DNA of 31,458 nucleotides. Source: a virus. Its lineage: Duplodnaviria; Heunggongvirae; Uroviricota; Caudoviricetes. The number at the start of each line of letters is the position of its first letter. Within the stretch, counting starts at the first letter, position 1. Positions 4,662 to 31,458 of this stretch are shown piece by piece. Location of the stretch: IMG/VR virus record IMGVR_UViG_2534681704_000006; one strand, written 5' to 3'. The translations under genes were made by a program, and so were the position numbers. Under the pieces are notes generated by a model that saw only the letters and a program-made list of their open reading frames with translations, was not told the DNA's origin and made no database searches.

Positions 4662-4759
4662 TTTTTATAAGCGTCGACGGCCTCACGAAACATCTTTTCA
4701 TCGCCAATAAAAGTGGCGATAGTGAATTTAGTCTGGATAGCCATAAGTGTTTGATCCAT
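4616..4759 (-). CDS. kil: Kil (host-killing, FtsZ inhibitor)
   Basis: 47-aa product [47 protein letters not shown] embedded in the longer 89-aa track ORF; overlaps gam as in lambda. Confidence 0.85.
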
Positions 4760-4892
4760 TTTTTGGGACTCCTGGCTGATTAAGTATGTCGATAAGGCGT
4801 TTCCATCCGTCACGTAATTTACGGGTGATTCGTTCAAGTAAAGATTCGGAAGGGCAGCCAGCAACAGGCCACCCTGCAATGGCATATTGCAT
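4728..4892 (-). CDS. cIII: cIII (FtsH inhibitor, stabilises cII)
   Basis: 54-aa product [54 protein letters not shown]; the track ORF N-terminal extension runs into the IS1 end. Confidence 0.9.
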   Translation of the reverse strand: MQYAIAGWPVAGCPSESLLERITRKLRDGWKRLIDILNQPGVPKNGSNTYGYPD

Positions 4893-4894
4893 GG

Positions 4895-4903
4895 TGTGCT
4901 CCG
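4895..4903. repeat. 9-bp target-site duplication (GTGTGCTCC), left copy
   Basis: Same 9-mer directly abuts both IS1 termini. Confidence 0.85.
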
Positions 4904-4917
4904 GTAATGACTCCAAC

Positions 4918-5421
4918 TTATTGATAGTGTTTTATGTTCAGATAATGCCCGATGACTTTGTCATGCAGCTCCACCGATTTTGAGAACGACAGCGACTTCC
5001 GTCCCAGCCGTGCCAGGTGCTGCCTCAGATTCAGGTTATGCCGCTCAATTCGCTGCGTATATCGCTTGCTGATTACGTGCAGCTTTCCCTTCAGGCGGGA
5101 TTCATACAGCGGCCAGCCATCCGTCATCCATATCACCACGTCAAAGGGTGACAGCAGGCTCATAAGACGCCCCAGCGTCGCCATAGTGCGTTCACCGAAT
5201 ACGTGCGCAACAACCGTCTTCCGGAGCCTGTCATACGCGTAAAACAGCCAGCGCTGGCGCGATTTAGCCCCGACGTATCCCCACTGTTCGTCCATTTCCG
5301 CGCAGACGATGACGTCACTGCCCGGCTGTATGCGCGAGGTTACCGACTGCGGCCTGAGTTTTTTAAATGGCGGAAAATCGTGTTGAGGCCAACGCCCATA
5401 ATGCGGGCGGTTGCCCGGCAT
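4918..5421 (-). CDS. insB: IS1 transposase InsB (expressed as InsAB' by -1 frameshift)
   Basis: 167-aa product matches recalled IS1 InsB. Confidence 0.93.
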
Positions 5422-5615
5422 CCAACGCCATTCATGGCCATATCAATGATTTTCTGGTGCGTACCGGGTTGAGAAGCGGTGTAAGTGAACTGCAGTTGCC
5501 ATGTTTTACGGCAGTGAGAGCAGAGATAGCGCTGATGTCCGGCAGTGCTTTTGCCGTTACGCACCACCCCGTCAGTAGCTGAACAGGAGGGACAGCTGAT
5601 AGAAACAGAAGCCAC
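5340..5615 (-). CDS. insA: IS1 InsA (transposition repressor / N-terminal part of InsAB')
   Basis: 91-aa product [43 protein letters not shown]... matches recalled InsA. Confidence 0.93.
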
Positions 5616-5670
5616 TGGAGCACCTCAAAAACACCATCATACACTAAATCAGTAAGTTGGCAGCATCACC

Positions 5671-5679
5671 GTGTGCTCC
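5671..5679. repeat. 9-bp target-site duplication (GTGTGCTCC), right copy
   Basis: Same 9-mer as at 4895..4903. Confidence 0.85.
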
Positions 5680-5741: not shown

Positions 5742-6110
5742 TCAGGCGGCTTTGATAGTCATATCATCTGAATCAAATATTCCTGATGTATCGATATCGG
5801 TAATTCTTATTCCTTCGCTACCATCCATTGGAGGCCATCCTTCCTGACCATTTCCATCATTCCAGTCGAACTCACACACAACACCATATGCATTTAAGTC
5901 GCTTGAAATTGCTATAAGCAGAGCATGTTGCGCCAGCATGATTAATACAGCATTTAATACAGAGCCGTGTTTATTGAGTCGGTATTCAGAGTCTGACCAG
6001 AAATTATTAATCTGGTGAAGTTTTTCCTCTGTCATTACGTCATGGTCGATTTCAATTTCTATTGATGCTTTCCAGTCGTAATCAATGATGTATTTTTTGA
6101 TGTTTGACAT
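5742..6110 (-). CDS. ea10: Ea10-like early protein
   Basis: 122-aa product (MSNIKKYIIDYDWKASIEIEIDHDV...) matches my recollection of lambda Ea10 and sits between cIII and sieB as in lambda. Confidence 0.8.
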   Translation of the reverse strand: MSNIKKYIIDYDWKASIEIEIDHDVMTEEKLHQINNFWSDSEYRLNKHGSVLNAVLIMLAQHALLIAISSDLNAYGVVCEFDWNDGNGQEGWPPMDGSEGIRITDIDTSGIFDSDDMTIKAA

Positions 6111-6127
6111 CTATTCATATCCTCACA

Positions 6128-6156
6128 GATAAAAAATCGCCCTCACATTGGAGGGC
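6128..6156 (-). terminator. intrinsic terminator upstream of ea10 in the leftward operon (tL1-like)
   Basis: Minus-strand hairpin GCCCTC-CAATGT-GAGGGC followed by GATTTTTTATCT. Confidence 0.55.
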
Positions 6157-6370
6157 AAAGAAGATTTCCAATAATCAGAACAAGTCGGCTCCTGTTTAGT
6201 TACGAGCGACATTGCTCAGTGTATTCACTCGTTGGAATGAATACACAGTGCAGTGTTTATTAGTATGCCTGTCTTTTAACCACATCAGGCTCGGTGGTTC
6301 TCGTGTACCCCTACAGCGAGAAATCGGATAAACTCTATTCACCCCTACAGAGAGCAAAAGAGAAACGCCG

Positions 6371-6968: not shown

Positions 6969-7241
6969 TCATCTCGCCGTCAGTTGTTTTGATTTCCGGT
7001 AGCCTGCCGCGTAAATGGCTACGTTTGGCAGGCAAATACTTCCACTGCATTCATCTGCCTTCTTGCAGCGAAGGCTTCCGAGTGATGCTGCTTTGTCTGC
7101 TCTGACGCAACCAGAGAGCTTTAGCGCAATTTTTCGCGCCAGTCGCTGTTCTTGCATTGCCTGCTCACGTTGAGCCTGTCTGCGTGCTCTGCGGCGATTT
7201 CTGGCGTTATCGTCAGCCAGATATGTAATGACTACTGCCAT
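6969..7241 (-). CDS. N: N-type transcription antiterminator (arginine-rich motif; P22 gp24-like C-terminus)
   Basis: 90-aa basic protein; N-terminal Arg-rich motif NARNRRRARRQAQREQ; C-terminal LPNVAIYAAGYRKSKQLTAR resembles P22 gene 24; first gene downstream of candidate nutL. Confidence 0.8.
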   Translation of the reverse strand: MAVVITYLADDNARNRRRARRQAQREQAMQEQRLARKIALKLSGCVRADKAASLGSLRCKKADECSGSICLPNVAIYAAGYRKSKQLTAR

Positions 7242-7347: not shown

Positions 7348-7390
7348 TTCCCGCATTTCGGCGGGACAATCCCATCAATGTTAAAGAGCC
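7348..7390 (-). promoter_or_regulatory. nutL candidate (boxA GGCTCTTTAACA, then boxB hairpin TCCCGC-CGAAAT-GCGGGA on the minus strand)
   Basis: boxA-like sequence followed 11 nt later by a hairpin identical to the boxB hairpin found at the mirror position right of cro. Confidence 0.65.
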
Positions 7391-7424: not shown

Positions 7425-7520
7425 CCGATGACTTAAATTTAAGATTTCTTTAACTATTGGTCAAGAGCGTTTTTGAAGAAAACTTAAATTTTGTTGCGAA
7501 GCTTAAGTTTTGCTTTGATT
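7425..7520 (-). promoter_or_regulatory. OL/pL region: repeated P22-type operator half-sites (xTTAAG...CTTAAx) and candidate pL (-35 TTGACC, -10 TAAATT on minus strand)
   Basis: Multiple CTTAA/TTAAG-containing dyads between cI terminator and nutL; promoter hexamers with about 17-bp spacing on the minus strand. Confidence 0.55.
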
Positions 7521-13655: not shown

Positions 13656-14180
13656 TTATTGTTTAACCCATAATAATTCATTGACATTGAATCCCAACTT
13701 TTGAGCGGTTCGCACATAGTCTGCTTTTACTTTATCTGGAATAGTTGGGGTCCTTGCCAGAATCCATAGGTATTCTCTGTTCGGACCACTGACAAGAGCA
13801 TACTTATACTCATCATCCAGTTTGATTACATTATAGCCACCATAGAAGGGGCCAAAAAACGAAACCTTCAATGCTGCAGTTTTAGTATCTCCAGTAAAGT
13901 ATGCTTTACCTTCGCTCTCGCTCCATTTATTTTTCGTTGGATCGTATCCACGGTTAAGTACACGAATCCCTCCGTCGTTCCGTTTTCCATAAGTAGCGCT
14001 GACCTGTTCCAGACCACGTTCGAACCGGTTCTCGAGGCGAGCTATTTCATACCATTTTCCGAGGTAGCGGTTGGCGTCAAAATTTGTAATCGGCTGCACA
14101 CCTTTAGGTGGTGTCGGGGCCTTACATGCTATAAGAGTGAAAGAGAGTGCAATGCCAGTCAACACAGGCCATAACTTCAT
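13656..14180 (-). CDS. blc: Blc-like outer-membrane lipocalin lipoprotein
   Basis: 174-aa product with lipobox (LIAC) and strong similarity to recalled bacterial lipocalin Blc (NFDANRYLGKWYEIARLENRFERGLE...KVSFFGPFYGGYNVI...YLWILARTP). Confidence 0.85.
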   Translation of the reverse strand: MKLWPVLTGIALSFTLIACKAPTPPKGVQPITNFDANRYLGKWYEIARLENRFERGLEQVSATYGKRNDGGIRVLNRGYDPTKNKWSESEGKAYFTGDTKTAALKVSFFGPFYGGYNVIKLDDEYKYALVSGPNREYLWILARTPTIPDKVKADYVRTAQKLGFNVNELLWVKQ

Positions 14181-14372
14181 AATAAATCCTGTACTTTTGA
14201 TAGTTGAGAGTAAGTATGAAAGATAGATGATTACGACCGATCACTTAAAGAACTTTCATACTATATTAGGAATAGTCCATAACAGAAAAATTGTCAGTGA
14301 TGACGCCAGAAAGGCAATTTATTCCGTGCACTACACAGTTTATGTGTTAATGAATTAGTCAAGGGGGAGAAT

Positions 14373-15332
14373 ATGATAAAAAAACCTGTGATTGGAATCA
14401 GCGGTTGTTTGGCCGGTTCTGCTGTTCGTTTTGATGGTGGTCACAAAAGAGCTGACTTTTTAATGGACAAATTAGTGGAATGGGTAACATTCAGACCAGT
14501 ATGTCCGGAAATGGCTATAGGGCTGCCAGTTCCGCGTCCTGCTCTACGTCTTGTGCGCTCGATGCAAGGAAATATACGGATGTGTTTCAGCCACGACCAG
14601 AATGAGGATGTGACAGAGAGAATGACAGAGTTTAGTCGTTCTTATATGGACAAATTAAAGGATGTATCGGGGTTTGTGGTTTGTGCTAAATCTCCCAGCT
14701 GTGGCATGGAGCGCGTGCGTGTCTATGATGAAAATGGTAATCGAGGTCGTAAAGATGGAGTGGGACTATTTACGAGCACTTTGATGGAAAAGTTTTCCTG
14801 GCTACCGGTTGAAGAGGATGGGCGATTACATGATCCAGTGCTTCGTGAGAATTTTGTTGAAAGAGTTTTTGCTTTGCATGAGCTCAATCACCTTTACAAG
14901 GAGAAATTATCAAGAAGAGAGTTATTAGCTTTTCATAGTCGTTATAAGCTTCAGTTGTTGGCGCATAGTCAGGCAGGCTATAAAGATATGGGACCATTTG
15001 TGGCTGCAATACACGAGTGGGCGGACCTTGAATCATACTTTGAGGTGTATCGTGATAAGCTGATGGCGATTCTCAGAAAACCTGCATCACGTAAAAATCA
15101 CACGAATGTGCTGATGCATATACAGGGGTATTTTAGTAACTACTTAAGTACACGCCAGCGTAAAGAGTTGAGCGAGGTTATACTTAACTATCGTTCTGGC
15201 ACATTACCTCTTCTTGCGCCGTTGACTCTGCTGAAGCATTATCTGGGTGAGTATCCTAATGATTACTTGCTTACACAGAATTACTTCGATCCCTATCCGG
15301 ACGAACTGGCTCTAAGACTGATGGTAAATTAA
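14373..15332 (+). CDS. DUF523/DUF1722 fusion protein (TudS-like [4Fe-4S] desulfidase-type N-domain)
   Basis: 319-aa ORF; N-terminal GISGCLAGSAVRFDGGHK motif with further conserved Cys residues, typical of DUF523; C-terminal half resembles DUF1722 (YbgA-like); domain assignment from memory. Confidence 0.65.
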   Translation: MIKKPVIGISGCLAGSAVRFDGGHKRADFLMDKLVEWVTFRPVCPEMAIGLPVPRPALRLVRSMQGNIRMCFSHDQNEDVTERMTEFSRSYMDKLKDVSGFVVCAKSPSCGMERVRVYDENGNRGRKDGVGLFTSTLMEKFSWLPVEEDGRLHDPVLRENFVERVFALHELNHLYKEKLSRRELLAFHSRYKLQLLAHSQAGYKDMGPFVAAIHEWADLESYFEVYRDKLMAILRKPASRKNHTNVLMHIQGYFSNYLSTRQRKELSEVILNYRSGTLPLLAPLTLLKHYLGEYPNDYLLTQNYFDPYPDELALRLMVN

Positions 15333-15674
15333 TTGTATGCGATATCATCCAAAAGGATGAGTTCCTGCATGCAGGATATTTACAATCGTAAAAACTACAC
15401 TATGATACCCAGAGTGTCAGTTTGTATAAAAACTCTGTTTACGCTGAAGAAACAATTGAGATGCAACTTAAAGTTGGTAAACATGCCAGTCAAAATATAT
15501 AATATTATGATTCCACGCAGCTATATATAATATAACAGATTGGTTTAATAATTTGTCTTTGTGAGTTAAATACATAATTTTATACTTGTGATGCAATGAA
15601 ATTTTCCTTATTGTTGAACTGGCGAATATTGATTTTCCACCTATACTTACCTGGTGTAACCCCAATGATATCAG

Positions 15675-16415
15675 GTGGATAATATGCCATACATATGTTC
15701 TATCATTTTGGTGTTGAACTCGTTTGATGTCCGAATTGGTAAAGAAGATATTTTGTTTAAAAAAGGAAGTGCTGTTCTCATTGATTACAATTTAAAAGAT
15801 TTTTTTTCATCAAATATAGATCATGTAATGATCGTAGATGTTGAAGAGAAAACAGTTAATGATTTCTTTAAAAGCAACACACTCTCACCTTTTTCTGTAA
15901 GAAGGTTTTATCCGGCATACTTGATGGTGGAATGTGAAGATTTTTCATTGTTAAAGAACTTGATTGCATGCTTGAATTGTGATGGCAGAACTGTGGATTT
16001 TGTTAGAAATCAAATATCACTTGCATGTCTTGCTATCTTATCTTCAGAGAAAATAGTGCAAAGTTTTTTATTTGGATGTCTTAATAGTTTAGGAAGTAAA
16101 GTTAAGGCTATTATTCACACGGATATATCTGCAGCATGGAGACTTTGTGATATATCTTCAAGACTGTATCTGAGTGAAAGTCTGTTAAAAAGAAAATTAA
16201 AGCACGAAGGCTTATCATTTAGTAAGTTAATTCTTGAAGAGCGAATGGTGATGGCGGAAAGGTTATTAAGCTACAATTTATATTCTGTTGGAAAAGTTGC
16301 TGAGATATGCGGTTATGAAAACACGTCATATTTTGTAAGTGTTTTCAGAAGGTATTTTGGTGTTCCTCCCCATCAATATTCATCAAGATTTTTTTTAGAA
16401 AAAGACATGATGTAA
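15675..16415 (+). CDS. AraC/XylS-family transcriptional regulator (AT-rich, AppY/GadX-like architecture)
   Basis: 246-aa ORF with C-terminal dual HTH AraC signature (...LKHEGLSFSKLILEERMVMAERLL...VGKVAEICGYENTSYFVSVFRRYFGVPP); very AT-rich gene and flanks. Confidence 0.8.
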   Translation: MDNMPYICSIILVLNSFDVRIGKEDILFKKGSAVLIDYNLKDFFSSNIDHVMIVDVEEKTVNDFFKSNTLSPFSVRRFYPAYLMVECEDFSLLKNLIACLNCDGRTVDFVRNQISLACLAILSSEKIVQSFLFGCLNSLGSKVKAIIHTDISAAWRLCDISSRLYLSESLLKRKLKHEGLSFSKLILEERMVMAERLLSYNLYSVGKVAEICGYENTSYFVSVFRRYFGVPPHQYSSRFFLEKDMM

Positions 16416-17776: not shown

Positions 17777-17913
17777 AATCTTAACTACAATATGATTCAT
17801 TTTGATGATTGTTTCATAAGGAACAGTGAAGTAAGATCTAAGAGGAGTTAAATTTTATACAGTATAATCATAATATTGCAGCAAGGTGGTTATAATTGAA
17901 AGAATATTTAGAT

Positions 17914-19371
17914 ATGAATACATCTCATGTAAGAGTTGTTACTCATATGTGTGGGTTCCTGGTTTGGCTCTATAGTCTTTCAATGTTGCCACCAATGGTT
18001 GTAGCATTGTTTTATAAAGAAAAAAGCCTGTTCGTTTTCTTTATAACTTTCGTTATATTTTTTTGCATTGGTGGCGGAGCGTGGTATACAACTAAGAAAT
18101 CTGGCATTCAATTACGTACCCGTGATGGGTTTATTATAATTGTAATGTTTTGGATTTTGTTTTCTGTTATTAGTGCATTCCCTTTATGGATTGACTCAGA
18201 ACTTAATTTAACGTTCATTGATGCTCTGTTTGAAGGGGTTTCTGGAATAACAACAACAGGAGCAACTGTAATTGATGATGTTAGTTCATTACCTCGGGCA
18301 TATTTGTACTATCGGTCACAGTTAAATTTTATAGGTGGTTTAGGAGTTATTGTTCTGGCGGTTGCTGTATTGCCATTATTGGGTATTGGTGGTACAAAGC
18401 TTTATCAGTCAGAAATGCCGGGGCCATTTAAGGATGACAAACTCACTCCCCGCCTGGCCGATACGTCACGGACACTGTGGATAACTTATTCTTTATTAGG
18501 TATTGCTTGTATTGTCTGTTATAGACTTGCAGGAATGCCTTTGTTTGATGCTATTTGTCACGGGATTTCCACAGTTTCGCTTGGTGGTTTCTCAACTCAT
18601 AGCGAGAGTATCGGATATTTTAATAACTATTTGGTTGAGCTGGTGGCTGGTTCTTTTTCCCTGCTATCGGCTTTCAACTTCACTCTTTGGTATATTGTTA
18701 TTAGCAGGAAAACGATAAAACCTTTAATCAGAGATATTGAACTTCGTTTCTTTCTGTTAATAGCCTTAGGGGTGATCATTGTTACCTCTTTCCAGGTCTG
18801 GCATATAGGTATGTATGACTTGCATGGAAGTTTTATTCATTCGTTTTTTCTTGCCAGCTCCATGCTCACTGATAATGGTTTAGCTACGCAGGATTATGCA
18901 AACTGGCCCACGCACACGATAGTGTTTTTGCTGTCGTCAAGTTTCTTTGGGGGATGTATAGGTTCAACTTGTGGTGGAATTAAGTCACTTCGATTTCTTA
19001 TACTTTTCAAACAAAGCAAACACGAGATAAATCAGCTTTCTCATCCCAGAGCGTTGTTGAGTGTAAATGTAGGAGGGAAGATAGTTACAGATCGTGTAAT
19101 GAGGTCTGTATGGAGTTTCTTTTTTCTTTATACTCTCTTCACGGTGTTTTTTATACTGGTGTTAAATGGTATGGGATATGATTTTCTTACATCATTTGCA
19201 ACAGTGGCTGCATGTATTAATAATATGGGATTAGGTTTTGGGGCTACTGCATCGTCATTCGGAGTGCTTAATGACATTGCAAAATATTTAATGTGCATAG
19301 CTATGATTCTTGGTCGCCTTGAAATTTATCCTGTTATTATATTGTTTTCAGGTTTTTTTTGGCGCTCCTAA
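17914..19371 (+). CDS. trkG: TrkG potassium uptake protein (TrkH family)
   Basis: 485-aa multi-pass membrane protein from MNTSHVRVVTHMCGFLVWLYSLSMLPPMVVALFYKEK...; matches recalled Rac-prophage TrkG; AT-rich. Confidence 0.92.
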   Translation: MNTSHVRVVTHMCGFLVWLYSLSMLPPMVVALFYKEKSLFVFFITFVIFFCIGGGAWYTTKKSGIQLRTRDGFIIIVMFWILFSVISAFPLWIDSELNLTFIDALFEGVSGITTTGATVIDDVSSLPRAYLYYRSQLNFIGGLGVIVLAVAVLPLLGIGGTKLYQSEMPGPFKDDKLTPRLADTSRTLWITYSLLGIACIVCYRLAGMPLFDAICHGISTVSLGGFSTHSESIGYFNNYLVELVAGSFSLLSAFNFTLWYIVISRKTIKPLIRDIELRFFLLIALGVIIVTSFQVWHIGMYDLHGSFIHSFFLASSMLTDNGLATQDYANWPTHTIVFLLSSSFFGGCIGSTCGGIKSLRFLILFKQSKHEINQLSHPRALLSVNVGGKIVTDRVMRSVWSFFFLYTLFTVFFILVLNGMGYDFLTSFATVAACINNMGLGFGATASSFGVLNDIAKYLMCIAMILGRLEIYPVIILFSGFFWRS

Positions 19372-19508: not shown

Positions 19509-20297
19509 ATGAGCGAGAAATTAAAGATAGTCTATCGCCCATTACAAGAATTGTCACCGTATGCGCACAACGCCAGGACGCACAGTACTGAGCAGGTGGC
19601 ACAACTGGTAGAAAGTATTAAGCAATTCGGCTGGACTAATCCGGTGCTGATTGACGAAAAGGGCGAAATTATTGCGGGTCACGGTCGTGTTATGGCGGCT
19701 GAAATGCTCAAAATGGATTCTGTTCCGGTCATTGTTCTGTCTGGCCTGACGGATGAGCAGAAAAAGGCGTACCGCCTGGCAGATAATCGCCTACCGATGA
19801 ATGCTGGCTGGGATGAAGATCTGTTGCGGATGGAGCTGTCGGACCTAATCAATGCTGATTTTGATGTCTCCCTGACAGGCTTCGGCCCGACAGAAATTGA
19901 TGAACTGTTGACGGATGTTTTGCCCGGTACAGGAAATAAGGAGGAGCCGTATACGACGAAAATTGATACGCCTGTTTATGAGCCGTCGGGCGGTAAACCG
20001 GATATCAGTGAACTGTACGACGATACGAAAACTCAGGAGCTGATCAGCCGGATACGTTCGGCGTCCCTTGAGCCTGATATTGAGAAATTCCTCCTGTGTG
20101 CGGCAGAACGTCACACGGTGTTTAATTTCAGCAGAATTGCGGACTATTACGCTCATGCCCCCGCTGAAATTCAGTGCCTTTTCGAGGAGTCGGCGCTGGT
20201 GATCATTGATTATCAGCAGGCTATTGAAAATGGATTTGTCCGAATGACGCAGCGCATGGTGGCGATCATGCATAGCGGGGAGGAGGAATATGCGTGA
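19509..20297 (+). CDS. ParB-like nuclease domain protein (YnaK-like)
   Basis: 262-aa ORF; N-terminus (YRPLQELSPYAHNARTHS...IIAGHGRVMAA) has ParB/Srx-type motifs; resembles recalled Rac YnaK but full length here. Confidence 0.75.
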   Translation: MSEKLKIVYRPLQELSPYAHNARTHSTEQVAQLVESIKQFGWTNPVLIDEKGEIIAGHGRVMAAEMLKMDSVPVIVLSGLTDEQKKAYRLADNRLPMNAGWDEDLLRMELSDLINADFDVSLTGFGPTEIDELLTDVLPGTGNKEEPYTTKIDTPVYEPSGGKPDISELYDDTKTQELISRIRSASLEPDIEKFLLCAAERHTVFNFSRIADYYAHAPAEIQCLFEESALVIIDYQQAIENGFVRMTQRMVAIMHSGEEEYA

Positions 20298-21153
20298 TGA
20301 TTTTTGCGCCTTTATTCTGACTCACGGGCGACCGGACAAAGTTCTGACTTACCGGACGTTGCGTCGTGCTGGCTATACCGGGAAAATTTTTATCGTTGTT
20401 GATGATGAAGATAAGACACGGCATCAGTACATGGCTGAATTTGGTGAACAGGTGCTGGTATTTTCCAAAGCAGATATTGCCAGTCGTTTTGACGAAGCCG
20501 ATAATTTTGGTGACCGCCGCTCAATTTTTTACGCCCGTAATGCCTGTTTCGACCTGGCAAAACTGGTCGGGTGTAAATACTTCATTCAGCTCGATGATGA
20601 TTATCACGAGTTCCAGTTTCGGGTGGATCGCAACTATGACCAGGCCTATTTCCCGATAAGGAAACTGGATGCGATCCTTTCTGAAATGCTGGCGTATTAC
20701 GAATCAATACCCGCGCTTTCCATCGCTATGTCGCAGGGCGGGGATTTTCTTGGTGACAATGGCGGCCATGCTTCGTGGGTGAAACGCAAGGCAATGAACA
20801 GCTTTATCTGTTCGGTTGATCGACCGTTCTCATTCATGGGGCGCATTAACGAGGATGTGAATACGTACACGAATCTCGGTCGCCGTGGTGAATTGTTTAT
20901 GACGATCGGTGCTGTCCAGTTAGGGCAGAAACAGACGTAGAAAAACAGCGGCGGAATGACCGAGCTGTATCTGGATTCCGGGACCTACGTTAAAAGTTTT
21001 TATTCCGTCATGTATGCGCCGTCGTGCGTAAAAATCTCACTGATGGGCGCCAGCCATAAACGCATTCACCATCAGGTCACCTGGAACAACGCTGCAGTAA
21101 AAATCCTTCACGAAAAATACAGGAAGAAGACACCCTGCATATTAATGGGGTGA
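20290..21153 (+). pseudogene. YdaY-like gene interrupted by a single in-frame TAG (20938..20940); possible DxD-type transferase
   Basis: ORFs 20290..20940 and 20956..21153 are in the same frame, separated only by TAG plus 5 codons; 8-nt overlap with upstream ParB-like gene; contains DDD motifs (VVDDEDK, QLDDDYHEF). Confidence 0.5.
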
Positions 21154-22506: not shown

Positions 22507-23281
22507 TGTGCCTCAGGCGCGATTTCTTTCAATGCCCCACAAATTTAAAGCCTATGTCGCTGGTTTTGGCTCGGGTAAAACATGGATTGGGTGTGGTGGC
22601 ATATGCAAGGGGATTTGGGAACATCCTGGTATAAATCAGGGATATTTTGCGCCAACGTATCCCCAAATTCGCGATATTTTTTACCCTACAGTGGAAGAAG
22701 TTGCTGCTGACTGGGGATTGAATGTAAAAATTAATGAGGGAAATAAAGAGGTTCATTTTTATTACGGACGTCAGTATCGGGGAACCACTATCTGCAGATC
22801 GATGGAGAAGCCGCAAACGATCGTCGGTTTCAAAATTGGTAATGCGCTGGTGGATGAACTGGACATTTTGCCGAAGGAAAAAGCCAGAACAGCGTGGCGC
22901 AAGATAATTGCGCGTATGCGTTATAAGGTTGATGGACTTCGCAACGGTATTGACGTTACAACCACGCCGGAAGGATTCAAATTTGTCTACGAGCAGTTTG
23001 TTAAAGCCGTGCGTGAAAAAACAGAGCTGGCCTCACTGTATGGTCTGGTGCAGGCATCTACTTTCGATAATGAAAAGAACCTGCCAGCAGATTACATTCC
23101 TTCGCTTCTTGAGTCATACCCTCCAGAGCTGATTAAAGCCTATCTTCGAGGACAGTTTACTAACCTGACAAGTGGTACTGTTTACCATCAGTTTGACCGG
23201 AAACTGAATAATTGCGAAGAAGTGGAGCAGCCAACCGCGCTGCTATTAACAGCATGTTTACCAGGCTCTCCGGAGAGCTGA
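22478..23281 (+). pseudogene. terL: terminase large subunit, N-terminal ATPase fragment only
   Basis: Walker A (VAGFGSGKTW) and Walker B (ALVDELD) motifs; ORF ends after 267 aa where the frame changes into a head-morphogenesis-like fragment; nuclease domain absent. Confidence 0.65.
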
Positions 23282-24000: not shown

Positions 24001-25829
24001 ATCCGGTCAGCGTGGAGGTTCAGTCCGTCACCGACGGCGTGAAGGTGAAAGTGAGCCGTGTTCCTGACGGCGTTGCCGGATACAGCGTGTGGGGGCTGAA
24101 GCTGCCGACGCTGCGCCAGCGCCTGTTCCGCTGTGTGAGTATCCGTGAGAACGACGACGGCACGTATGCCATCACTGCCGTGCAGCATGTGCCGGAAAAA
24201 GAGGCCATCGTGGATAACGGAGCGCACTTTGACGGCGACCAGAGCGGCACGGTGAATGGTGTCACGCCGCCAGCGGTGCAGCACCTGACCGCAGAAGTCA
24301 CCGCAGACAGTGGGGAGTATCAGGTGCTGGCGCGCTGGGACACGCCGAAGGTGGTGAAGGGTGTGAGCTTTATGCTTCGCCTGACCGTGGCCGCCGATGA
24401 CGGCAGTGAGCGGCTGGTCAGCACGGCCCGGACGACGGAAACCACTTACCGCTTCAGGCAGCTGGCGCTGGGGCGTTACACGCTGACGGTCCGGGCGGTA
24501 AATGCCCGGGGACAGCAGGGCGATCCGGCGTCGGTATCGTTCCGGATTGCCGCCCCGGCAGCGCCGTCGCGGATTGAGCTGACGCCGGGCTATTTTCAGA
24601 TAACTGCCACGCCGCATCTTGCGGTTTATGATCCGACGGTACAGTTTGAGTTCTGGTTCTCGGAAACGCGGATTACCGATATCAGGCAGGTTGAAACCAC
24701 AGCCCGCTACCTTGGCACGGGGCTGTACTGGATAGCCGCCAGTATCAATATCAAACCGGGCCATGATTATTACTTTTATATCCGCAGTGTGAACACCGTT
24801 GGCAAATCGGCATTCGTGGAGGCCGTCGGTCGGGCGAGCGATGATGCGGAAGGTTACCTGGATTTTTTCAAAGGCAAGATAACCGAATCCCATCTCGGTA
24901 AAGAGCTGCTGGAAAAAGTTGATCTGACGGAGGATAACGCCAGCAGACTGGATGAGTTTTCGAAAGAGTGGAAGGACGCTAACGATAAATGGAATGCCAT
25001 GTGGGGCGTCAAAATTGAGCAGACCAAAGACGGCAAACATTATGTCGCGGGTATTGGCCTCAGCATGGAGGACACGGAGGAAGGCAAGCTGAGCCAGTTT
25101 CTGGTTGCCGCTAACCGTATCGCGTTTATTGACCCGGCAAACGGGAATGAAACGCCGATGTTTGTGGCGCAGGGCAACCAGATATTCATGAACGACGTGT
25201 TCCTGAAGCGCCTGACAGCCCCCACCATTACCAGCGGTGGCAGTCCTCCGGTATTTTCCCTGACATCAGACGGAAAGCTGACCGCTAAAAATGCGGATAT
25301 CAGTGGTAGTGTGAATGCGAACTCAGGAACGCTCAACAATGTCACGATTAACCAGAACTGTACGATTAAGGGCATGCTGGAGGCGACCCAGGTCAGAGGG
25401 GATTTCGTTAAAGCTGTATCAAAAGCCTTCCCGAAAAAAGTCGGTACGTGGGGTAACACGGAAACACCAAACGGTACGGTTACAGTCACCATCAGCGATG
25501 ATCATAACTTTGACCGCCAGATTATTATTCCGCCCATTATTTTTAACGGTATAGCGTATGACGATCCGGGGAGCGGAAATAACCCAGGAGGCACGCGATA
25601 CACGGGTTATGGTTTTGAAGTTCGCAAAAACGGCGTATTAATCGCATCCAGAGAAACTAAAGGGGCCATTCCCGGTAGTTACAGTGCAGTTATTGATATG
25701 CCTAGTGGTGGTGGTAGCGTCACTCTGGAGTTTAAGATTTTCCAGAAAGGCAATCAGGGGGCAGGCAATATCACCGACTGTACGGTGATTGTGACCAAAA
25801 AAGCCGCTTCCGGCATCAGTATTCGTTGA
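24001..25829 (+). pseudogene. J: tail tip fibre / host specificity protein J, C-terminal half only
   Basis: From about 24001 the translation ([43 protein letters not shown]...) matches the C-terminal part of recalled lambda J; no N-terminal half upstream. Confidence 0.85.
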
Positions 25830-25850
25830 AATTGTTATAACCCATATAAG

Positions 25851-25878
25851 GGCACCAGAAATGGTGCCTTTTTTATTG
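25851..25878 (+). terminator. intrinsic terminator after J
   Basis: Hairpin GGCACCAGAAATGGTGCC followed by TTTTTTATT. Confidence 0.7.
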
Positions 25879-25898
25879 CAGAAAAGCGAGAGGTAATT

Positions 25899-26498
25899 AT
25901 GCGTAAACTTTATGCCGCCATTTTGTCCGCAGCCATTTGTCTGGCCGTATCAGGTGCGCCTGCATGGGCGTCTGAACATCAGTCCACGCTGAGCGCGGGG
26001 TATCTTCATGCCTCGACGAACGTTCCCGGCAGCGATGATCTGAACGGGATTAACGTGAAATACCGTTATGAGTTTACGGACACACTGGGGATGGTGACGT
26101 CATTCAGCTATGCAGGAGACAAGAATCGCCAGCTGACTCATTACAGCGATACCCGCTGGCATGAAGATTCCGTTCGTAACCGCTGGTTCAGCGTAATGGC
26201 GGGGCCGTCTGTGCGCGTGAATGAATGGTTCAGCGCGTATGCGATGGCGGGTGTGGCTTACAGCCGTGTGTCGACTTTCTCCGGGGATTATCTCCGCGTA
26301 ACTGACAACAAGGGGAAAACGCACGATGTGCTGACCGGAAGTGATGACGGTCGCCACAGCAACACGTCTCTGGCGTGGGGAGCTGGCGTGCAGTTTAACC
26401 CGATCGAATCCGTGGCCATTGATATTGCTTATGAAGGCTCCGGCAGTGGCGACTGGCGCACTGACGGTTTCATCGTGGGTGTCGGTTATAAGTTCTGA
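25899..26498 (+). CDS. lom: Lom outer-membrane protein (Ail/PagC/OmpX family)
   Basis: 199-aa product with signal peptide and beta-barrel C-terminal YKF, in lambda position between J and stf. Confidence 0.9.
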   Translation: MRKLYAAILSAAICLAVSGAPAWASEHQSTLSAGYLHASTNVPGSDDLNGINVKYRYEFTDTLGMVTSFSYAGDKNRQLTHYSDTRWHEDSVRNRWFSVMAGPSVRVNEWFSAYAMAGVAYSRVSTFSGDYLRVTDNKGKTHDVLTGSDDGRHSNTSLAWGAGVQFNPIESVAIDIAYEGSGSGDWRTDGFIVGVGYKF

Positions 26499-26523
26499 TT
26501 AGCCAGGTAACACAGTGTTATGA

Positions 26524-26552
26524 CAGCCCGCCGGTTCAGGCGGGCTTTTTTG
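26524..26552 (+). terminator. intrinsic terminator after lom
   Basis: Hairpin AGCCCGCC-GGTTCA-GGCGGGCT followed by TTTTTTGTGG. Confidence 0.7.
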
Positions 26553-26562
26553 TGGGGTGAAT

Positions 26563-29400
26563 ATGGCAGTAAAAATTTCAGGTGTACTGAAAGACGGCAC
26601 AGGAAAACCGGTACAGAACTGCACAATCCAGCTGAAAGCAAAACGTAACAGTACCACGGTGGTGGTGAACACGCTGGCATCTGAAAATCCGGATGAAGCC
26701 GGGCGTTACAGTATGGACGTTGAGTACGGTCAGTACAGCGTTATTCTGTTGGTGGAAGGATTCCCGCCGTCACATGCCGGGACCATCACAGTGTATGAAG
26801 ATTCCCGACCCGGTACGCTGAATGATTTTCTCGGTGCCATGACGGAGGATGATGCCCGTCCGGAGGCACTGCGCCGTTTTGAGCTGATGGTGGAAGAGGT
26901 GGCGCGTAACGCGTCCGTGGTGGCACAGAACACGGCAGCCGCGAAGAAGTCAGCCAGTGATGCCAGCACATCAGCCCGTGAGGCGGCAACCCATGCGACT
27001 GATGCTGCAGGCTCAGCACGCGCAGCCAGCACGTCAGCCGGACAGGCCGCGTCGTCGGCTCAGTCAGCGACTTCCAGCGCAGGAACGGCATTAACAAAGG
27101 CCACTGAAGCATCAAAAAGTGCTGCCGCTGCAGAGTCCTCAAAAAGCGCGGCAGCTACCAGTGCCAGTGCCGCGAAAACGTCAGAAACGAATGCTGCAGC
27201 GTCACAACAATCAGCAGCCACTTCTGCATCCACCGCGACTACGAAAGCGTCAGAAGCTGCCACCTCAGCCCGGGATGCGGCGGCTTCAAAAGAGGCGGCA
27301 AAATCATCAGAAACGAACGCATCCTCGAGCGCCAGTAGCGCAGCTTCCTCGGCAACAGCGGCAGGAAATTCCGCGAAGGCGGCAAAAACGTCCGAGACGA
27401 ACGCTAAGTCTTCTGAAACAGCAGCGGGACAGAGCGCCTCAGCTGCGGCAGGTTCAAAAACAGCGGCTGCGTCGTCTGCCAGTGCTGCGTCAACAAGTGC
27501 CGGGCAGGCCTCAGCCAGTGCCACCGCTGCCGGAAAATCGGCAGAAAGCGCCGCATCATCCGCTTCAACAGCCACAACGAAGGCTGGCGAAGCCACTGAG
27601 CAAGCCACTGCAGCAGCGAGGTCTGCTTCTGCAGCAAAAACCTCTGAAACAAATGCAAAGACTTCAGCAGACAATGCTGCTTCCTCTAAGGCGGCAGCCG
27701 CATCGTCCGCTGGTTCAGCGGCGTCATCGGCATCATCTGCGTCTGCTTCAAAAGATGAGGCGACCAGACAAGCGTCAGCAGCGAAAGGTAGTGCCACGAC
27801 AGCAACAACGAAAGCATCAGAGGCGGCAGGCAGTGCGACGGCTGCATCTCAGAGCAAAGTTGCTGCTGAATCCGCGGCAACGCGTGCCGAAACAGCGGCA
27901 AAACGGGCAGAGGATATTGCTGATGCCGTATCTCTGGAAGATGCGAGTACGACGAAAAAAGGTGTGGTTCAGCTCAGTAGCGCCACTAACAGCCCGTCTG
28001 AAACGCTGGCTGCGACACCAAAAGCGGTTAAGGCGGTAATGGATGAAACGAACAAGAAAGCGCCCTTAAATAGTCCTGCACTGACCGGAACGCCAACAAC
28101 GCCAACTGCGCCAAAAGGTACTAATAATACTCAGATCGCAAGTACGGCTTATGTGATGGCCGCGATTGCCGCCCTTGTAGACTCGTCGCCTGACGCACTG
28201 AATACGCTGAACGAGTTAGCGGCGGCGCTGGGCAACGACCCGAATTTTGCGACCACCATGACTAACGCGCTTGCGGGTAAGCAACCGAAAGATGCCACCC
28301 TGACGGCGCTGGCCGGGCTTGCTACTGCGGCAGACAGGTTTCCGTATTTTACGGGGAATGATGTCGCCAGCCTGGCAACCCTGACAAAAGTCGGGCGGGA
28401 TATTCTTGCGAAATCGACCGTTGCTGCCGTTATCGAATACCTCGGTTTACAGGAAACGGTAAATCAGGCTTCTGGCGCATTACAGAAAAACCAGAACGGC
28501 GCAGATATTCCGGGAAAAGATACCTTCACCAAAAACATTGGTGCCTGCCGCGCATATAGCGCATGGCTGAATATTGGTGGCGATAGTCAGGTCTGGACAA
28601 CTGCGCAATTTATTTCGTGGCTGGAGAGTCAGGGGGCATTTAACCATCCTTACTGGATGTGCAAAGGCTCATGGGCTTATGCAAATAATAAGGTTATTAC
28701 AGATACAGGTTGCGGAAATATTTGTCTTGCAGGTGCTGTGGTGGAAGTTATTGGCACTCGCGGCGCAATGACCATACGCGTTACTACGCCGAGCACGTCC
28801 AGCGGTGGCGGAATTACTAACGCTCAATTCACTTATATTAATCATGGTGATGCTTACGCTCCTGGCTGGCGACGAGACTACAACACGAAAAACCAGCAGC
28901 CTGCATTTGCTTTAGGGCAAACAGGAAGCAGGGTCGCAAATGATAAAGCTGTTGGCTGGAACTGGAATAGCGGTGTTTATGATGCAGATATCAGTGGTGC
29001 ATCGACATTAATCCTCCACTTCAATATGAATGCGGGGAGTTGCCCTGCTGTACAGTTCCGCGTGAATTACAGGAACGGCGGTATTTTTTATCGTTCAGCG
29101 CGTGATGGTTATGGCTTTGAAGCTAACTGGTCAGAGTTTTACACCACAACACGCAAACCCTCTGCGGGGGATGTTGGTGCATATACGCAGGCAGAATGTA
29201 ACTCAAGGTTTATTACAGGTATTCGCCTTGGCGGTCTGTCATCTGTTCAGACATGGAAAGGCCCCGGCTGGTCTGACAGGTCAGGTTATGTCGTTACGGG
29301 TTCAGTTAACGGAAACCGTGATGAATTAATTGATACAACTCAGGCAAGGCCAATTCAGTATTGCATTAATGGGACGTGGTATAACGCGGGGAGTATTTAA
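26563..29400 (+). CDS. stf: side tail fibre protein Stf (lambda-like N-terminus, Ala/Ser-rich repeats, variable C-terminus)
   Basis: 945-aa product from MAVKISGVLKDGTGKPVQNCTIQLKA... matching recalled lambda/Rac Stf N-terminus; gix-like site at 28430..28455 divides constant from variable part. Confidence 0.9.
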   Translation: MAVKISGVLKDGTGKPVQNCTIQLKAKRNSTTVVVNTLASENPDEAGRYSMDVEYGQYSVILLVEGFPPSHAGTITVYEDSRPGTLNDFLGAMTEDDARPEALRRFELMVEEVARNASVVAQNTAAAKKSASDASTSAREAATHATDAAGSARAASTSAGQAASSAQSATSSAGTALTKATEASKSAAAAESSKSAAATSASAAKTSETNAAASQQSAATSASTATTKASEAATSARDAAASKEAAKSSETNASSSASSAASSATAAGNSAKAAKTSETNAKSSETAAGQSASAAAGSKTAAASSASAASTSAGQASASATAAGKSAESAASSASTATTKAGEATEQATAAARSASAAKTSETNAKTSADNAASSKAAAASSAGSAASSASSASASKDEATRQASAAKGSATTATTKASEAAGSATAASQSKVAAESAATRAETAAKRAEDIADAVSLEDASTTKKGVVQLSSATNSPSETLAATPKAVKAVMDETNKKAPLNSPALTGTPTTPTAPKGTNNTQIASTAYVMAAIAALVDSSPDALNTLNELAAALGNDPNFATTMTNALAGKQPKDATLTALAGLATAADRFPYFTGNDVASLATLTKVGRDILAKSTVAAVIEYLGLQETVNQASGALQKNQNGADIPGKDTFTKNIGACRAYSAWLNIGGDSQVWTTAQFISWLESQGAFNHPYWMCKGSWAYANNKVITDTGCGNICLAGAVVEVIGTRGAMTIRVTTPSTSSGGGITNAQFTYINHGDAYAPGWRRDYNTKNQQPAFALGQTGSRVANDKAVGWNWNSGVYDADISGASTLILHFNMNAGSCPAVQFRVNYRNGGIFYRSARDGYGFEANWSEFYTTTRKPSAGDVGAYTQAECNSRFITGIRLGGLSSVQTWKGPGWSDRSGYVVTGSVNGNRDELIDTTQARPIQYCINGTWYNAGSI
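26920..27900 (+). repeat. low-complexity Ala/Ser/Thr-rich repetitive coding region within stf (KTSETNA-type repeats)
   Basis: Repeated peptide motifs (AAKTSETNA, SSASAAS) and GC-rich DNA; source of several overlapping alternative-frame ORFs in the track. Confidence 0.7.
28430..28455. other. gix/pix/cix-like 26-bp site-specific inversion crossover site (TTATCGAATACC TC GGTTTACAGGAA)
   Basis: Right half and centre match the recalled Mu gix site (TTATCCAAAACCTCGGTTTACAGGAA); lies in the conserved EYLGL coding segment of stf. Confidence 0.7.
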
Positions 29401-29402
29401 CG

Positions 29403-29936
29403 ATGATGCACTTAAAAAACATTACTGCTGGCAACCCTAAAACAAAAGAGCAATACCAGCTAACAAAGCAATTTAACATCAAATGGCTTTATTCAGATGA
29501 TGGAAAAAACTGGTATGAGGAACAAAAGAATTTCCAGCCAGACACTTTGAAAATGGTCTATGACCATAACGGCGTTATTATTTGTATTGAAAAGGATGTT
29601 TCAGCAATTAATCCAGAGGGTGCAAGCGTCGTTGAATTACCTGATATTACAGCAAATCGCCGGGCTGATATTTCGGGGAAATGGATGTTCAAAGATGGCG
29701 TAGTGATAAAGCGAACTTATACCGAGGAAGAGCAGAGGCAACAAGCGGAAAATGAAAAGCAAAGCCTGTTGCAACTTGTCAGGGATAAAACCCAGCTATG
29801 GGACTCACAGCTACGGCTGGGCATCATTTCCGACGAGAATAAACAAAAATTAACCGAGTGGATGCTCTATGCGCAGAAAGTCGAATCTACAGACACTTCC
29901 GGCCTGCCAGTAACGTTTCCCGAACAACCAGAATGA
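29403..29936 (+). CDS. tfa: tail fibre assembly protein Tfa
   Basis: 177-aa product [40 protein letters not shown]... typical Tfa/U family, immediately after stf. Confidence 0.85.
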   Translation: MMHLKNITAGNPKTKEQYQLTKQFNIKWLYSDDGKNWYEEQKNFQPDTLKMVYDHNGVIICIEKDVSAINPEGASVVELPDITANRRADISGKWMFKDGVVIKRTYTEEEQRQQAENEKQSLLQLVRDKTQLWDSQLRLGIISDENKQKLTEWMLYAQKVESTDTSGLPVTFPEQPE

Positions 29937-29939
29937 GAG

Positions 29940-29962
29940 AAGGCCCGCTATCGGGCCTTAAT
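29940..29962. terminator. hairpin shared by the convergent tfa genes (bidirectional terminator candidate)
   Basis: AAGGCCCG-CTAT-CGGGCCTT followed by AATTTTTACT. Confidence 0.5.
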
Positions 29963-29964
29963 TT

Positions 29965-30492
29965 TTACTCTGGTTTTTGTGGCCATTCAGGATTTGCCGT
30001 ATCCACACGGCTGACCAGAACACTGTAGCGTTCCCATGCTTCCAGTCGTGTGCGTTCCTCGTCTGTTGCCATATTCAGCCTGACAGCGCGTTCCAGCGGT
30101 TGGATGACTGATTCAGCTTCGAAAAGCAATGCGGCCTTTTGTGATTCGGCCTGTTGTTGTTGCTCGTCTGCCGTATAAATCCGTTTAACCACAGCTCCGT
30201 CCCTAAACATCCACTTACTGGAATCATCAGCGCAGCGGTTGGCTGTAATATCTGGAACCTCAACGACGCTATAACCTTCAGGGTTAAGCGTGGAGGCATC
30301 TTTGGTGATGGCGACAATAATATTATTTGCATCGTAAACAATCTTTATTGTGTCTGGCTGAAAGTTTTTCACTTCCTCATACCAGTTTTTTCCGTCTTCG
30401 GACCATAACCAGATAACATCAAAATTCTTTGTTAGCTGATATTGTTCTTTTGTTTTTGGATTTCCAGACTTAATATTTTTTAAATGCTGCAT
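29965..30492 (-). CDS. alternative tail fibre assembly protein Tfa' (inverted orientation)
   Basis: 175-aa product [40 protein letters not shown]... paralogous to the + strand Tfa. Confidence 0.85.
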
Positions 30493-30495
30493 AAA

Positions 30496-31458
30496 TTACA
30501 CCTGTACGACGTTATACCATGTGCCATTGATGTATTTTTGTATTGGTCTGAATACTGCCGGATCATCGCCATCAACTGCACCGATAATGCCAAGCCCCGT
30601 AATTGCATGACCTGATTTCTCATACATCACGCCTTTTTGCATAGTCTGAACAACACGTGTACCAAGTCGGACATCTCTCACATAACGTGAGTCAAAATTA
30701 CCATAATTGCCGGGAATAACTTGCGCACCGCAAAGCCAGTTGCCATTGTTGTCCATGTACGCCTGACCATCGGTGCCATTGGCTGTCCTTGAGTTATTAA
30801 TCATGTAGATGCCAAATTGCTTATTCCCCAGTCCACCAATCATAAATTTGCGATCAGCGTGGTCCTGACGAAGTAATGCCTGCGCACCATCGGTGGATAC
30901 CGCATTGCGTCCCAAAATAACATTCTGGTCACGCATATGAATCCACATGCCGGTACTACTGTTAATTGCAAAACGGTTTGCAAATATATCCCCTGTAACA
31001 TCAAGACCATGCCCCATGCTTATCCGACCAGTTCTGAGATTAAGCGTAAAGGGGCGTAGTGGCCCTATATCACCATTTTCTCCCTCATTCTCTCGTGTAG
31101 GGATGATATGCAGGCATTCTTCAGAACGACGAAAAATAGCACCAAAAGATGAATTAAATATCCTCAGTGCATTGACTGTCGATATTTTTACTTCACTGCT
31201 GAAAAGGGCTTTAACAAGGACAGACAAAGCATCCCATTTAAGAGTCATCAGGTCTTTTGTTGTGGTGCTCTGGCGGCTTCTCCATTTGAAATATTCATTG
31301 CCGTTGTCGCCTGTTTCAAACCACATGTATGAATCAGTGTCGCTGTCGGCATTATTTTTAAAACCAATCTTTGCCCAGTCAGTATTTCTAATCCAGGCAA
31401 GGATTGAGTCGTTTTCAAAAGTAAGCCCACCGGACAAGGTATCGCCATTCTTTTGCAC
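30496..31458 (-). CDS. alternative tail fibre C-terminal (variable) segment, 5' end beyond window
   Basis: 320-aa partial ORF running off the window; begins (V)QKNGDTLSGG, paralleling the + strand LQKNQNGADIPG after the crossover site; both end with INGTWYN. Confidence 0.8.
   Translation of the reverse strand: MQKNGDTLSGGLTFENDSILAWIRNTDWAKIGFKNNADSDTDSYMWFETGDNGNEYFKWRSRQSTTTKDLMTLKWDALSVLVKALFSSEVKISTVNALRIFNSSFGAIFRRSEECLHIIPTRENEGENGDIGPLRPFTLNLRTGRISMGHGLDVTGDIFANRFAINSSTGMWIHMRDQNVILGRNAVSTDGAQALLRQDHADRKFMIGGLGNKQFGIYMINNSRTANGTDGQAYMDNNGNWLCGAQVIPGNYGNFDSRYVRDVRLGTRVVQTMQKGVMYEKSGHAITGLGIIGAVDGDDPAVFRPIQKYINGTWYNVVQV

Follow-up and report, generated by a model that had tools for sequence, protein, structure and literature searches.

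An IS1 insertion, probably recent and of weak polarity, in the ea10-cIII spacer of the pL operon in a defective lambda-like prophage

We analysed a stretch of DNA of 31,458 nucleotides (hereafter called the window) that contains a lambdoid prophage in which the leftward early (pL) operon is interrupted by a complete copy of the insertion sequence IS1. The element is located in the spacer between ea10 and cIII, and a perfect target-site duplication together with an IS-free relative demonstrates that it arrived there by a real, simple transposition event, with a fit far beyond chance. In our assessment it is quite probable that this was a recent and strain-specific transposition of an IS1B-type element that exerts weak polarity on the genes downstream, and that it constitutes a neutral step in the IS-driven decay of a cryptic prophage rather than a regulatory adaptation. 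The evidence for this reading, and the alternative explanations that we weighed against it, are presented below.

Results

The element and its target-site duplication

Screening of the sequence with a repeat finder identified two perfect copies of the 9-bp sequence GTGTGCTCC, which are 777 bp apart and have exactly 768 bp between them. The left, cIII-proximal copy occupies positions 4894-4902 and the right, ea10-proximal copy positions 5671-5679; the start of the insertion, placed at 4895 in an earlier note on this DNA, is hence to be moved to 4894, where the duplication begins. The enclosed segment (4903-5670, minus strand) is a complete IS1 of 768 bp and of the IS1B type, as judged from its identity to the elements of E. 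coli K-12 and from reconstruction of the empty site. It starts with GGTAATGACTCCAACTTATTGAT on the plus strand at position 4903, which is the right inverted repeat (IRR; 4903-4925), and at its other end, position 5670, is the left inverted repeat (IRL; 5648-5670), which reads GGTGATGCTGCCAACTTACTGAT on the minus strand. The arms of IRL and IRR match at 18 of 23 positions. Thus, on re-inspection both terminal inverted repeats and both copies of the duplication were present, as the earlier note had described.

At the nucleotide level the element matches the IS1B and IS1C copies annotated in E. coli K-12 MG1655 at 767 of its 768 positions, and IS1A of the same strain at 760 of 768. All of its features are on the minus strand, and this is also the direction of pL transcription. 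The insA gene (5340-5615) encodes a protein of 91 aa that is the same as InsA of K-12 IS1B, and the insB reading frame (4918-5421; 167 aa, with its TAA stop codon at 4920-4918) differs from that of K-12 IS1B by one residue. The programmed -1 frameshift motif TTTAAAAAAC (A6C), corresponding to IS1 positions 304-313, is located at 5358-5367, and a -1 fusion at this motif generates the 232-aa InsAB' transposase. A length of about 768 bp, imperfect repeats of about 23 bp, insA and insB' with the A6C motif, the 9-bp duplication and the identity to the reference elements were therefore all found, and together they define the segment as a member of IS1. It is a canonical copy and presumably active, its intact reading frames and ends being compatible with activity. 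A consensus promoter scan detected a promoter-like sequence, CTGCCA-16-TATGAT, at 5663-5636; this site overlaps IRL, is directed toward cIII, and corresponds in position to the known insA promoter.

Reconstruction of the empty site

The earlier note had proposed a comparison with an IS-free relative. When positions 4903-5679 were deleted in silico, the resulting sequence matched the IS-free locus of E. coli AR_0085 exactly over 1,200 bp (600 bp on each side), and the empty site in AR_0085 contains a single copy of the 9-mer. Phage lambda, too, has the sequence of the reconstructed empty site over the stretch between the terminator hairpin and the cIII ATG. The AT content is 67% in the 30 nt upstream of the duplication, whose first and last bases are G and C, respectively; this AT-rich flank and the G...C ends fit the target preference of IS1.

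These results also bear on the possibility that the insertion is an assembly artefact, in which a multi-copy IS1 was misplaced at this site. IS1 is indeed present in multiple copies, with a median of 10-11 matching places per genome, and repeats of this kind often misassemble. Nevertheless, a perfect 9-bp duplication, a full-length element and an excision that exactly restores the ancestral sequence are not what misassembly is expected to produce, and we regard an artefact as extremely improbable.

The start region of cIII

The cIII gene (4728-4892, minus strand; 54 codons plus the stop codon) starts with an ATG at 4892-4890. The cIII genes annotated in four other E. coli genomes share this nucleotide sequence at 100% identity, and that in a fifth at 98.8%. 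According to the earlier note, IS1 would sit 3 bp upstream of the cIII start codon; the actual distance from the end of IS1 to the ATG is 10 nt, consisting of the 9-bp duplication plus one C, so that the duplication itself ends 1 nt before the ATG. Read on the sense strand, the junction consists of IS1 ending in CAATAAGTTGGAGTCATTACC, followed by the duplication, which in this orientation is GGAGCACAC, followed by C and the ATG. This 9-mer includes GGAG, the Shine-Dalgarno sequence of cIII, and because the duplication carries it, cIII retains its core Shine-Dalgarno sequence, the spacing and the start codon. What the insertion removes from cIII is the upstream UAA of the lambda-type UAAGGAG, and the predicted pairing of the cIII leader with the 3' end of 16S rRNA changes from -8.5 to about -5.9 kcal/mol. 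Judging from this predicted pairing, the insertion most likely renders translation of cIII somewhat less efficient.

We also considered whether the insertion alters the switch structure of the cIII mRNA, and rejected this idea: the predicted hairpin that holds the Shine-Dalgarno sequence and the AUG sits wholly downstream of the insertion point, and the predicted mean unpaired probability from the Shine-Dalgarno sequence to the AUG is 0.33 versus 0.34 in the two alleles, so that neither the predicted fold nor the accessibility of the start has changed. A TTG within IRR (4914-4916) extends the cIII frame by 24 nt upstream of the ATG, giving an ORF at 4728-4916; it has no ribosome-binding site and is probably meaningless.

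Antitermination and polarity in the pL operon

According to Pfam and to the annotations of relatives, the window contains a lambda-type pL gene order, with N followed by ea10-cIII-kil-gam-bet-exo, running leftward from the repressor gene. The position of IS1 between ea10 and cIII in an operon of this type, as given in the earlier note, agrees with this gene order and with the identity to lambda. A promoter scan detected a candidate pL promoter (TTGACC-17-TAAATT; 7436-7464, minus strand) adjoining the repressor gene. The antitermination gene N (6969-7241, minus strand; 90 aa) was identified by its Pfam N_peptide domain (E = 2e-15); it is full length, and its product is 97-99% identical to N of the viable phages JEP4, mEp213, HK140, HK620 and HK630. 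Between pL and N, a candidate nutL was recognized by eye at 7348-7385 (minus strand), in which a boxA-like GCTCTTTAA precedes a hairpin resembling boxB (CCCGCC GAAAUG CGGG region); this hairpin has 6 bp of GC pairs, and with a fold z score of -0.6 it is no better than shuffled controls.

A scan for intrinsic terminators yielded two terminator-like hairpins on the minus strand between N and IS1. One, with a T-rich tail, is located in the ea10-cIII spacer (5718-5699), 28 nt upstream of IS1, and is the same in phage lambda; the other is located at 6158-6137. The gene situated between them, ea10 (5742-6110, minus strand; DUF2528), is intact according to ORF and Pfam analyses. Since both hairpins must be passed between N and IS1, a leftward polymerase that reaches IS1 should already be modified by N.

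This argument is relevant to the strong polarity that the earlier note had attributed to the insertion. In the strongest form of that model, IS1 would cut cIII, kil, gam, bet and exo off from pL, and would have been kept for the lower Kil toxicity and the more stable prophage that result. In ordinary operons IS1 is classically polar, which is explained by the fact that insB' is translated only after a rare frameshift, leaving a long stretch of untranslated RNA for Rho. Moreover, silencing of toxic prophage genes by Rho is established (reviewed in PMC12360218), and kil is located directly downstream. However, transcripts that arrive at IS1 should have run through two terminator-like hairpins and hence be antiterminated by N, whose gene is intact, so that these features point away from strong polarity. 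In addition, N-modified transcription classically withstands the polarity of IS elements; Adhya, Gottesman and de Crombrugghe (PNAS 1974) reportedly found N-modified pL transcription to be insensitive to it. As long as the lysogen is repressed, pL is off in any case, and the insertion would then be without effect on pL-driven expression. Taken together, the polarity of IS1 on cIII-kil-gam-bet-exo would be weak in induction and irrelevant in repression, and any silencing of downstream genes by IS1 would probably be small.

A second proposal concerns transcription that starts within the element. The earlier note had suggested that an outward promoter of IS1 rewires the operon, and in its fullest form the idea is that the IS1 promoter, or a hybrid promoter at IRR, drives constitutive low-level expression of cIII-kil-gam-bet-exo in the repressed lysogen, amounting to a domestication of Red and Gam. 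The element reads in the same direction as the operon, its insA promoter-like site (5663-5636) aims at cIII, and a scan for intrinsic-terminator-like sites between insB and cIII found none. Conversely, no outward-facing promoter-like site was found on the minus strand at the IRR/cIII junction (about 4903-4960) at the threshold of the consensus scan, and the rewiring proposal thus received no backing from the cIII-proximal end of the element. Transcription from the IS1 promoter is weak and subject to repression by InsA, and the untranslated insB' of the wild-type element favours termination by Rho; constitutive synthesis of Kil would, furthermore, be harmful. Reporter work does show that transcripts from the IS1 promoter reach a gene placed just past the stop codon of insAB', in a construct in which the transposase frameshift was fixed and the gene was fully translated (PMC12428005). 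On balance, we consider read-out from IS1 into the operon to be very unlikely.

Distribution of the insertion

To the 5,426 complete E. coli genomes that we searched, the insertion is foreign: the left junction had no contiguous match, the right junction was found in none of them, and the whole 1.77-kb region had no colinear match. The exact left junction was likewise found zero times among 185,579 species-representative genomes, zero times in IMG/VR and zero times in the JGI metagenomes. The reconstructed empty site, on the other hand, is present in 1,477 of the 5,426 complete E. coli genomes. With no junction against 1,477 empty sites, the insertion looks private to its source strain and appears to be a recent single event in a prophage that was already defective.

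Four other E. coli genomes contain an IS1 near cIII that ends upstream of its ATG at a distance of 125, 132, 180 or 288 nt (at L006 1675, L001 6622, L004 1730 and L005 1838) and has the same orientation as the IS1 of the window. In all four the DNA on the far side of IS1 is deleted, and the element borders on cusS, an N fragment or a ParB-like fragment. These look like IS1-mediated adjacent deletions that stopped at different points in ea10. We had considered that the exact site might be a recurrent hot spot for IS1, which is rejected, because the only candidates among the 5,426 complete genomes, a set of two-piece matches, correspond to IS1 copies elsewhere, 125 to 288 nt upstream, accompanied by adjacent deletions.

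The same data also bear on strong polarity. Insertion sequences in or near cIII of relatives could be a sign that expression of the leftward operon was repeatedly selected against. On the other side, the four nearby IS1 copies go together with adjacent deletions and are not clean insertions, and a junction seen in 0 of 5,426 genomes, as opposed to 1,477 with an intact site, gives no sign of spread. The population data therefore lend no support to the idea that the insertion was selected for a reduced Kil toxicity, and we consider an insertion that shuts the operon down and was kept for that reason to be unlikely.

The host prophage and its relatives

Pfam analysis and annotated relatives identify the host of the insertion as a lambdoid prophage. 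The left arm of the window consists of exo, bet, gam, kil, cIII, IS1, ea10 and sieB, and is followed by a regulatory and replication region with N, a LexA-like repressor gene, O, P, nin genes, a Dam methylase gene, rusA and Q. Between Q and the lysis genes there is a cargo block (13656-16415), which contains a lipocalin gene on the minus strand and genes for YbgA (319 aa) and an AraC-type regulator; its position is that of the Shiga toxin genes in Stx phages. The 319-aa ORF (14373-15332) was examined as a candidate for the Shiga toxin A subunit and rejected, because Pfam assigns it to YbgA (DUF523/DUF1722).

Beyond the cargo block, the window continues with the lysis genes, trkG, a ParB-like gene and a glycosyltransferase gene. 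The gene annotated as trkG in relatives encodes a TrkH-family potassium transporter and is located at 17896-19371, between the lysis genes and the ParB-like gene; the Rac prophage of K-12 has the same arrangement. The region 19509-20940 carries a gene with a ParB N-terminal domain followed by a gene for a TET-associated glycosyltransferase (PF20691), and these two may form a DNA-modification pair. The late end of the window contains terminase fragments, a J fragment, lom and tail-fibre genes. At 29403-31458, two tail-fibre assembly genes converge (29403-29936 on the plus strand and 29965-30492 on the minus strand) beside an inverted tail-fibre fragment, and in a relative a recombinase gene is located just past the tail-fibre segment. 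Invertible host-range segments have this arrangement.

In two relatives, prophages of this family occupy the att-lambda region, flanked by ybhC on one side and by ybhB-bioA on the other. Of the relatives found, the closest is the prophage of E. coli MB30 (NZ_CP073968.1), which is at att-lambda and has a backbone that is 99.95-100% identical to that of the window. Compared with MB30, the window lacks the genes for the portal, major capsid, tail tube and tape measure proteins, and a 2.16-kb deletion fuses the gene for the large terminase subunit to a minor head gene. These differences are located at window positions 23233 and 24006-29123, to be compared with L010 27454-29618 and 30391-40442 in MB30. 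In turn, a J fragment, lom and a tail-fibre gene are still present in the window and were lost from MB30. The two are therefore differently decayed copies of one prophage family, and the prophage of the window is defective and incapable of making particles. The MB30 prophage contains copies of ISKpn26 (IS5 family) in cIII, sieB, the holin gene and the tape measure gene (L010 6183-7490, 8393-9589, 19800-20997 and 36573-40294). These copies hit the same operon independently, and the pattern in the relatives fits an accumulation of IS elements and IS-mediated deletions in dispensable prophage DNA.

Discussion

The most probable course of events may be summarized as follows. IS1 entered the AT-rich ea10-cIII spacer of the pL operon of a lambda-like prophage that is defective, and the staggered cut at the target copied the 9 bp GGAGCACAC. 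Upon derepression, N produced from its intact gene would modify RNA polymerase at nutL, and the N-modified polymerase would read through both hairpins, through IS1 and then through cIII-kil-gam-bet-exo, resulting in weak polarity. The direct consequences of the insertion would then be modest: a lower translation of cIII and, when pL fires, a high level of sense transcription of insA and insAB'. For lambda, it is known that cIII, ea10 and their neighbours are dispensable for growth (PMC10695390). Because this region is non-essential and the prophage is already defective, there would be little constraint on an insertion at this position. A single private insertion fits neutrality and recent selection alike and by itself cannot distinguish between them.

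The predicted sense transcription of the transposase genes raises a further possibility. IS1 is co-oriented with pL inside an operon antiterminated by N, and SOS derepression of the prophage might therefore cause sense transcription of insA and insAB' and a burst of transposase, thereby tying genome rearrangement to DNA damage. Reporter work has shown that sense transcription from upstream raises both transcription of the IS1 transposase and transposition (PMC12428005). According to Machida 1983, as cited in that same paper, read-through repressed cointegration. Since these two sources disagree, the direction of the effect of read-through is uncertain, and we regard such a coupling as rather unlikely.

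The element and its biology are already known, and the sole new fact is its location, that is, the private insertion of one strain. The insertion has little import beyond annotation, and it represents a clean and well-documented case of IS-driven prophage decay. It also illustrates that IS polarity should not be assumed in operons that are read by an antiterminated polymerase. The downstream Red genes exo, bet and gam are intact, and they may still be expressed on induction.

Comparison with known systems places these observations in context. The IS1 of the window shares with IS1B and IS1C of K-12 its 768-bp length, InsA, the inverted repeats, the A6C frameshift site and a 9-bp target duplication. 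The single nucleotide that differs is IS1 position 704: residue 152 of InsB is Q in K-12 IS1B and L in the element of the window, the latter being the residue found in IS1A. The genomic place of the element also differs from that of IS1B and IS1C in K-12. In the MB30 prophage the pL operon has been hit by an IS as well; there, however, it is ISKpn26 and it is located inside the cIII coding sequence, and no IS1 is present at the site occupied in the window.

With respect to phage lambda itself, the pL operon has the same gene order, and the nucleotide identity is 97.8% over 3,056 bp (exo-bet-gam-kil-cIII-ea10). The window differs from lambda by the IS1 interruption and by having no ral or orf28 between ea10 and sieB. 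The gap left by ral and orf28 corresponds to window positions 6111-6370, where the lambda alignment skips from 34055 to 34396. The N and immunity region is also of a different type, with an N like that of mEp213 and HK620, and the late region is degraded.

Classical cases of IS elements in operons of this kind are lambda r14, which has IS1 in cII, and gal::IS1 or gal::IS2 read from pL. As in those lambda and gal insertions, the element of the window is located in an early operon antiterminated by N, and its polarity is likewise expected to depend on N modification. In contrast to lambda r14 and to gal::IS1 or gal::IS2, the insertion described here is a natural one, in the cryptic prophage of a wild strain, and it is located in an intergenic region where the ribosome site of the downstream gene has been kept.
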